Shown piece after piece: positions 37,923-60,652 of a DNA stretch of 64,000 nucleotides (position 1 is its first letter; every line of letters begins with the position of its first letter). The notes beneath the pieces were generated by a model. It did no database searches and was not told the DNA's origin. It saw only the letters and a program-made list of their open reading frames with translations. The stretch is from NCBI RefSeq assembly GCF_055900595.2, contig NZ_CM148325.1. One strand, 5' to 3'. Made by a program: the position numbers and the translations under genes.

Positions 37923-37947
37923 AAAAAAGGGCATTTCGCCCTTTTTA
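37921..37947. terminator. bidirectional terminator between convergent comM and yifE
   Basis: aaaaaaaagggcatttcgccctttttatt: hairpin agggc-atttc-gccct flanked by A-run and T-run. Confidence 0.7.
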
Positions 37948-38286
37948 TTAATCGTCAGAATCGGTGTAGTCTTCAGCACCTTCAACCTGCGGTTTACCGC
38001 CGGAAAGGGTGTGAAAACGTTTTGGACGCTTGATACGCGTCATATACTTGGACCACACGCGTTCTGCTTCTGTCACTGGCTCACGTTCGCCACGGCATAC
38101 TGCTACGAAGAGTTTCTCTTCCTCGGTAACCGGCTCGCGTTTGCCGAGATCCAGCTCATTGAAGGCATAACCATGACGCTCAAGCAGTTGTGCCTCTTTG
38201 ATGGTGAAATCACCATGACGAGAGAATCCACGTGGATAATGTTTATTGTCGAAATATCGATTAGTCGTCGTAAAGCTTTCCGCCAT
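37948..38286 (-). CDS. maoP: DUF413 protein YifE / MaoP (Ori macrodomain organiser)
   Basis: 112-aa [55 protein letters not shown]... Confidence 0.9.
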
Positions 38287-38320
38287 CCTGCACGCTCCTA
38301 ATTCTTTGACCGAGCTAGTT

Positions 38321-38337
38321 ATGGCGCGGAGTATTAG
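38321..38337. promoter_or_regulatory. candidate maoS site
   Basis: atggcgcggagtattag (reverse complement CTAATACTCCGCGCCAT) lies just upstream of yifE/maoP; from memory this matches the 17-bp maoS motif. Confidence 0.4.
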
Positions 38338-38404
38338 TTACGCTTGACAGAGTGTAAAACAAAACATTTAAATCATAACGACAAATAATTTTGCGGAGAG
38401 CACT

Positions 38405-60384: not shown

Positions 60385-60652
60385 TGTGGATAACTCTGTC
60401 AGGAAGCTTGGATCAACCGGTAGTTATCCAAAGAACAACGGTTGTTCAGTTTTTGAGTTGTGTATAACCCCTCATTCTGATCCCAGCTTATACGGTCCAG
60501 GATCACCGATCATTCACAGTTAATGATCCTTTCCAGGTTGTTGATCTTAAAAGCCGGATCCTTGTTATCCACAGGGAAGTGCGATCCTAATAAGAGATCA
60601 CAATAGAACAGATCTCTAAATAAATAGATCTTCTTTTTAATACCCAGGATCC
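60385..60652. other. oriC: chromosomal replication origin oriC
   Basis: Reverse complement of canonical E. coli oriC: DnaA boxes R4 (60385..60393 tgtggataa), R3 (60424..60432), R2 (60459..60467), R5/M (60510..60518), R1 (60565..60573 ttatccaca); three AT-rich 13-mers at 60587..60599, 60602..60614, 60618..60630; 13 GATC sites; BamHI site ggatcc at 60647..60652. Confidence 0.97.

Follow-up and report, generated by a model that had tools for sequence, protein, structure and literature searches.

Genomic context of the maoP-hdfR region

We analysed a 64-kb stretch of DNA (the window) around the two divergently transcribed genes maoP (yifE) and hdfR. The genes, the DNA between them and the replication origin were located as follows.

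37948..38286, minus strand: maoP (yifE), 112 aa, the trans-acting partner of maoS; open reading frame with PF04219/DUF413 (E 2.4e-38)
38287..38404, no strand: maoP/hdfR divergent intergenic region, 118 bp, bounded by the two start codons
38405..39244, plus strand: hdfR, 279 aa, divergent LysR-type regulator; open reading frame with HTH_1 and LysR_substrate domains, and RefSeq annotation
60602..60630, minus strand: L and M 13-mers of oriC; matched exactly over 29 nt, versus 0 matches in 100 shuffles

Both maoP and hdfR are intact in the window, and the matching RefSeq E. coli genomes annotate maoP as "macrodomain Ori organization protein MaoP". A 601-bp piece around the site matched 5,425 of the 5,426 complete E. 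coli genomes, in which the genes are annotated as yifB, maoP and hdfR, indicating that the window is E. coli DNA. The 118-bp intergenic region is identical to its counterpart in MG1655. For the origin, the textbook oriC 13-mer consensus GATCTNTTNTTTT gave 0 matches and was set aside, and the actual L and M 13-mer string was found instead.

The yifB-maoP-hdfR region was also contained in 16 of 72,556 PLSDB records (e.g., NZ_CP134663.1 and NZ_OY843411.1). Plasmid-borne copies were rejected as an explanation; all 16 records are non-mobilizable and several are 1-4.9 Mb in length, and they appear to be mislabelled chromosomes or chromosome fragments. A hairpin with a 10-bp stem (AAAAAGGGCGAAATGCCCTTTTT, 37924-37946), flanked by A and T runs, occupies the gap in which yifB and maoP converge, and by its sequence it looks like a bidirectional intrinsic terminator.

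Identification of the maoS site

An earlier note on this DNA had proposed that a 17-mer in the yifE/hdfR intergenic DNA is maoS, the site that functions with MaoP to organise the Ori macrodomain. On the plus strand, positions 38321..38337 are atggcgcggagtattag, as confirmed from the letters of the window. The reverse complement, CTAATACTCCGCGCCAT, was equal letter for letter to the published maoS sequence (Valens et al. 2016, PMC5023128), with 17/17 identity and zero differences.

38337..38321, minus strand (same strand as maoP): maoS, 17-nt cis-acting site CTAATACTCCGCGCCAT; exact match to the published sequence

maoS was defined as a 17-nt motif within the hdfR-yifE intergenic region and was described as a single chromosomal site (PMC5023128). 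When the 64-kb window was searched with up to 3 mismatches, one copy of CTAATACTCCGCGCCAT was found, with 0 mismatches. An exact 17-mer is expected by chance in about 7.5e-6 copies in 64 kb on both strands (2 x 64,000 / 4^17); therefore, the match in the window is not a chance occurrence. The site is placed 34 bp upstream of the maoP ATG and corresponds to MG1655 3948035-3948051. It lies 22.27 kb from the L and M 13-mers of oriC, in agreement with the distance of about 22 kb given earlier. The claim that the MaoP/maoS pair is intact was also confirmed, as a full-length DUF413 maoP gene is accompanied by the exact 17-mer.

We conclude, with a probability of about 0.9, that the site in the window is the E. 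coli maoS that acts with MaoP, at its native location between maoP and hdfR. It shares with maoS of Valens, Thiel and Boccard 2016 (PLoS Genet 12:e1006309) the same 17 nt, strand relative to maoP, location and proximity to oriC. The identity of the element is already known; i.e., the window carries the same element in another E. coli strain. In practice, the match yields a correct annotation: in this strain, the MaoP/maoS pair is intact and lies as far from oriC as expected.

Conservation of maoS in Enterobacterales

A 61-bp piece centred on maoS was present in 5,425 of the 5,426 complete E. coli genomes and identical in 5,418 of these, although in 1,495 E. coli genomes the identity over the surrounding 601 bp was no more than 95-99%. 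Conservation beyond the species was assessed with an exact scan for the 17-mer in a 298-Gb collection holding one genome per bacterial or archaeal species, which gave at least 120 loci. Enterobacterales accounted for 119 of the 120 exact-match loci listed, with all major families represented. The genera include Escherichia, Klebsiella, Erwinia, Pantoea, Yersinia, Serratia, Dickeya, Hafnia, Edwardsiella, Budvicia, Proteus, Providencia, Morganella, Photorhabdus and Arsenophonus. Among the matches listed, the distance from the 17-mer is 33-43 bp to the maoP ATG downstream and 63-68 bp to the start of the divergent hdfR, as scored in the loci long enough to tell; each locus has one copy, and no contig was listed twice. 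Further copies were found neither in the 64-kb window nor, among the matches listed, in six complete Enterobacterales chromosomes, each of which was listed once.

The remaining exact match listed was in a Rhizobium contig (L117) with neither maoP nor hdfR. This copy in an unrelated organism, together with the roughly 35 chance matches that arithmetic predicts over the 298-Gb collection, is what would be seen if CTAATACTCCGCGCCAT were a chance occurrence or a generic repeated motif. However, the expectation of about 7.5e-6 copies applies to the window, the sequence is an experimentally defined site, and 119 of the 120 matches listed occupy the same position beside maoP, one per locus. We excluded this reading on the results from the window, the published sequence and the species scan, and its probability is negligible.

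The 17/17 conservation in the 119 listed loci is partly by construction since the scan required an exact match. The loci picked by the MaoP protein, independently of the 17-mer, comprised four in Enterobacterales; Leminorella and strain ESL0689 showed 17/17 identity, and a 1.4-Mb Pantoea symbiont showed 16/17. In locus L133 (CP073321.1, 1010360-1013059), from a 4.8-Mb genome, maoP is cut to 99 aa, no hdfR was called and yifB is fragmented. There, one substitution and a deletion of 1 bp have changed the maoS position to CCAATAC-CCGCGCCAT; from its sequence, this locus looks like a natural case of maoS decaying along with its genes. Judging from these alignments, maoS is under very strong purifying selection.

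No maoS-like sequence was found upstream of the distant DUF413 genes outside Enterobacterales. Loci with a Pasteurellaceae-like arrangement (dsbA-DUF413-trmA), loci neighboured by rmf and further ones lack hdfR and differ from the 17-mer by 7 mismatches or more, indicating that the 17-mer is not general to DUF413 loci. In a metagenome contig (L123) and in a second locus (L130), a DUF413 gene about 50% identical to MaoP faces a divergent HdfR-like LysR gene. These two loci keep the promoter layout (TTTTAC, 17 nt, GATACT or GATAAT), and their match to the 17-mer is 10/17 or none. As they keep the gene pair but not the 17-mer, the pairing of the maoP/hdfR type is older than the exact maoS sequence.

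Overlap of maoS with the maoP core promoter

We scanned the intergenic region on the maoP strand for sigma-70-like hexamers. One such site was found (TTTACA, 17 nt, AATACT), with 9/12 matches to the consensus. Taken alone, the scan is weak, as chance predicts roughly one match of this quality in the region. In 106 unique Enterobacterales sequences, the candidate -35 element keeps its offset and showed 89-100% per-base conservation, and both hexamers were marked by peaks in the published mutagenesis data of Reg-Seq (PMC7567609), which are described below.

38353..38358, minus strand: candidate maoP -35, TTTACA; promoter scan, Reg-Seq peak, conserved
38330..38335, minus strand: candidate maoP -10, AATACT, maoS bases 3-8; promoter scan, Reg-Seq peak TAATA, RNAP index
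38323..38329, minus strand: GC-rich discriminator CCGCGCC, maoS bases 9-15; read from the sequence
38314, minus strand: RACE start, position 0 of Reg-Seq; MG1655 3948058, converted from supplementary files 1 and 11

The predicted start of maoP, inferred from the position of the -10 element about 7 nt upstream, is the A at 38322 (MG1655 about 3948050). The RACE start at 3948058 is 8 nt downstream of it, and a second RACE start of maoP sits upstream of 3948058 according to Reg-Seq (PMC7567609). The maoS site coincides with the maoP core promoter, i.e., with the -10 element AATACT, the discriminator CCGCGCC and the predicted +1. The 2016 authors wrote that the intergenic region "presumably contains the promoter" (PMC5023128). 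In the MaoP/maoS papers, we found no statement on the overlap of the site with the -10, discriminator and start of maoP or on its order-wide invariance. The promoter overlap and the Enterobacterales-wide invariance in the loci examined are modest additions to a known site.

maoS is asymmetric, with no dyad other than GCGC. By eye only, CTAATTC (38299-38305) and GTATTAG (38331-38337) form a short inverted repeat (CTAAT, 29 nt, ATTAG) that connects the 5' end of maoS with the stretch immediately preceding the ribosome-binding site of maoP; at this length, the repeat does not allow a judgement. On the hdfR strand, a perfect TTGACA (38345-38350, plus strand) with 83-95% per-base conservation lies inside the spacer of the maoP promoter, and an invariant TTTAAAT sits 17-18 nt downstream of it. 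As read from the sequence, the two could form a candidate hdfR promoter. If this promoter is real, the divergent promoters overlap and are possibly mutually exclusive.

Conserved block upstream of maoS

An ungapped alignment anchored on maoS revealed a second conserved block.

38353..38385, no strand: conserved upstream block, -48..-16 from maoS base 1; ungapped alignment anchored on maoS

On the maoP strand, this block reads …ATTTGTCGTTATGATTTAAATGTTTTGTTTTACA. Its mean majority-base frequency was 0.947, and 26 of its 33 columns were conserved at 95% or more. In the same genomes, the third positions of maoP codons showed a value of 0.59, and positions 1 and 2 showed 0.91-0.93. The upstream block is therefore conserved above codon positions 1 and 2 of maoP across Enterobacterales (0.947 versus 0.91-0.93). 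The 17 bases of maoS and the next two were invariant or nearly so in this sample, which was chosen by the exact 17-mer, whereas the 15 bases directly upstream of maoS were only about 80% conserved. No indels occur between the blocks, indicating that the spacing of the -35 element and upstream block relative to maoS is fixed. The upstream block overlaps the "PhoP" site of Reg-Seq and part of its "HdfR" site.

Mutagenesis data on the maoP promoter

The Reg-Seq mutagenesis of the maoP promoter takes MG1655 3948058 as position 0 (PMC7567609), and mutational footprints are already published for each base of maoS. The smoothed footprints show peaks of the same sign at -43..-39 (TTACA) and -22..-18 (TAATA) (PMC7567609). 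These fall on the candidate -35 and -10 elements, indicating that mutations in the hexamers alter maoP expression, given our interpretation of the mapping from index to position. A further peak at -16..-12 (TCCGC) has a sign opposite to that of the -35 and -10 peaks (PMC7567609). The RNAP index for maoP is 94, compared with about 104 at most promoters (PMC7567609), which we read as a -10 element near -21. The opposite-sign signal over the maoS discriminator is repressor-like, given how we interpret the signs and indices in the Reg-Seq tables.

Reg-Seq assigned a "GlpR repressor" site at -25..-11 and activator sites for PhoP at -55..-35 and HdfR at -100..-55 (PMC7567609). The "GlpR" site corresponds to 38339..38325 of the window (AACTAATACTCCGCG) and covers the first 13 bases of maoS. 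HdfR was set aside as a binder of the 17-mer, its Reg-Seq site at -100..-55 being away from maoS.

These data bear on another explanation, in which the 17-mer is the core promoter of maoP plus an ordinary operator; its conservation would then arise from the control of maoP only, and the macrodomain effect would be indirect. The layout of TTTACA, 17 nt and AATACT fits this explanation, as do the Reg-Seq peaks on those hexamers, the RNAP index pointing to about -21 and the repressor-like signal over the discriminator, which was assigned to GlpR. The distant DUF413/LysR loci that keep the promoter layout and lose the rest of the 17-mer also favour it, and so does the authors' remark in 2016 that the intergenic region presumably holds the promoter (PMC5023128). 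However, at an ectopic position, the 17 nt without a -35 element constrained a marker in a non-structured region when MaoP was supplied in trans, and a plasmid with the intergenic region and maoP did not complement the chromosomal deletion of the site (PMC5023128). In addition, the near-invariance of the 17 bases and the next two, compared with about 80% in the spacer, exceeds the need of a -10 hexamer. We consider it quite improbable that control of maoP alone accounts for the site.

Proposed mechanism of MaoP and maoS

Several properties of the system are known from K-12, which has the identical sequence. The chromosome must carry the 17-mer in cis, MaoP is able to work in trans, and together they make the DNA to either side of the site less mobile and limit contacts between Ori and Right (PMC5023128). 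The 2016 authors proposed tracking or loop extrusion from maoS (PMC5023128). In the 2017 follow-up, a second maoS in a non-structured region did not extend the Ori interactions, and the mechanism of MaoP/maoS was called unknown. We found no published ChIP, EMSA or footprint of MaoP on maoS, and the 2016 paper, in which the term "ChIP" occurs 0 times, reports no binding assay (PMC5023128).

The MaoP protein was also characterized. Its search returned 513 representative homologues at E <= 0.001, and an AlphaFold model built from 75 sequences was mostly helical with a pLDDT of 77. In this model, no recognisable DNA-binding fold or fold match was found, and a sequence search against PDB chains gave no match. 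Residues about 49-82 contain an internal direct repeat of 11 residues followed by 11 residues, and some distant homologues have two or three DUF413 stretches per protein (P0155, 213 aa; P0179, 371 aa). Deleting hdfR and deleting maoP have near-identical effects on an RpoS-dependent reporter, which fits the activation of maoP by HdfR.

We propose that a MaoP-dependent complex would assemble on the asymmetric maoS site, with the DNA contacted by MaoP itself or via RNA polymerase or another bound factor. Because maoS extends over the maoP promoter from -10 to +1, a complex bound at the native locus may also regulate maoP transcription by feedback. With maoS as its only point of entry, a process of tracking or loading would then propagate through the Ori region. 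For this mechanism as a whole (the complex on maoS, the feedback on maoP and the spread from a single entry point), we regard the chances as about even. Counted against it are the assignment by Reg-Seq of the repressor-like footprint in maoS to GlpR, not to MaoP, the negative literature result on binding of MaoP to maoS, and the failure of the second maoS of the 2017 study to extend the Ori interactions.

A bolder reading is that maoS and the maoP core promoter are one functional element; i.e., maoS would work as the -10, discriminator and +1 of maoP, and nucleation would be due to RNA polymerase, to a MaoP complex with an autoregulatory role, or to both, on promoter DNA that is melted or poised. 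Such an arrangement would explain why all 17 bases are invariant and in fixed register with the -35 element and the upstream block, and it would explain a MaoP protein without a DNA-binding fold. If it is true, several hundred kilobases are organised from one entry point, which is a promoter core. We put this reading forward tentatively, as a possibility with the odds against it.

Alternatively, RNA polymerase bound at the promoter core may be the organiser; MaoP would then associate with the polymerase or the open complex and would not be a classical site-specific DNA-binding protein. The composition of maoS (-10, discriminator and +1), its asymmetry without a dyad beyond GCGC, the predicted lack of a recognisable DNA-binding fold in MaoP and the near-identical reporter effects of the two deletions are consistent with such a role. 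However, we found no MaoP-polymerase interaction reported in the literature on MaoP, and a 17-mer without a -35 or extended -10 element is not expected to recruit the holoenzyme stably. We therefore consider a polymerase-based organiser unlikely. The wider question is by what means a single site of 17 bp can constrain DNA across hundreds of kilobases, and the promoter overlap and the invariance at a fixed spacing in the Enterobacterales loci examined make it easier to test.

Comparison with known systems

The matS sites and MatP of the E. coli Ter macrodomain likewise form a site-specific system that defines a macrodomain. The palindromic matS occurs as 23 repeats over 800 kb and is directly bound by MatP, whereas maoS is a single asymmetric site whose direct binder is only putative. 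The parS site is likewise palindromic and is recognised by ParB, a DNA-binding CTPase, in contrast to MaoP, a 112-aa DUF413 protein without a recognisable fold match in its model. E. coli is not known to have a chromosomal ParABS system. Like maoS, parS consists of one or few origin-proximal cis sites that nucleate a long-distance effect, a comparison drawn by the 2016 authors (PMC5023128). The genes for MatP and MaoP are also both members of a set whose evolution in enterobacteria was coupled to that of Dam (PMC5023128).

An operator placed over a sigma-70 core promoter, which acts by steric repression or autoregulation, resembles maoS in another way; maoS similarly spans the -10 to +1 of maoP and carries a repressor-like footprint. 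For an ordinary operator, unlike maoS, no influence on the mobility of DNA at a distance of hundreds of kilobases has been reported.
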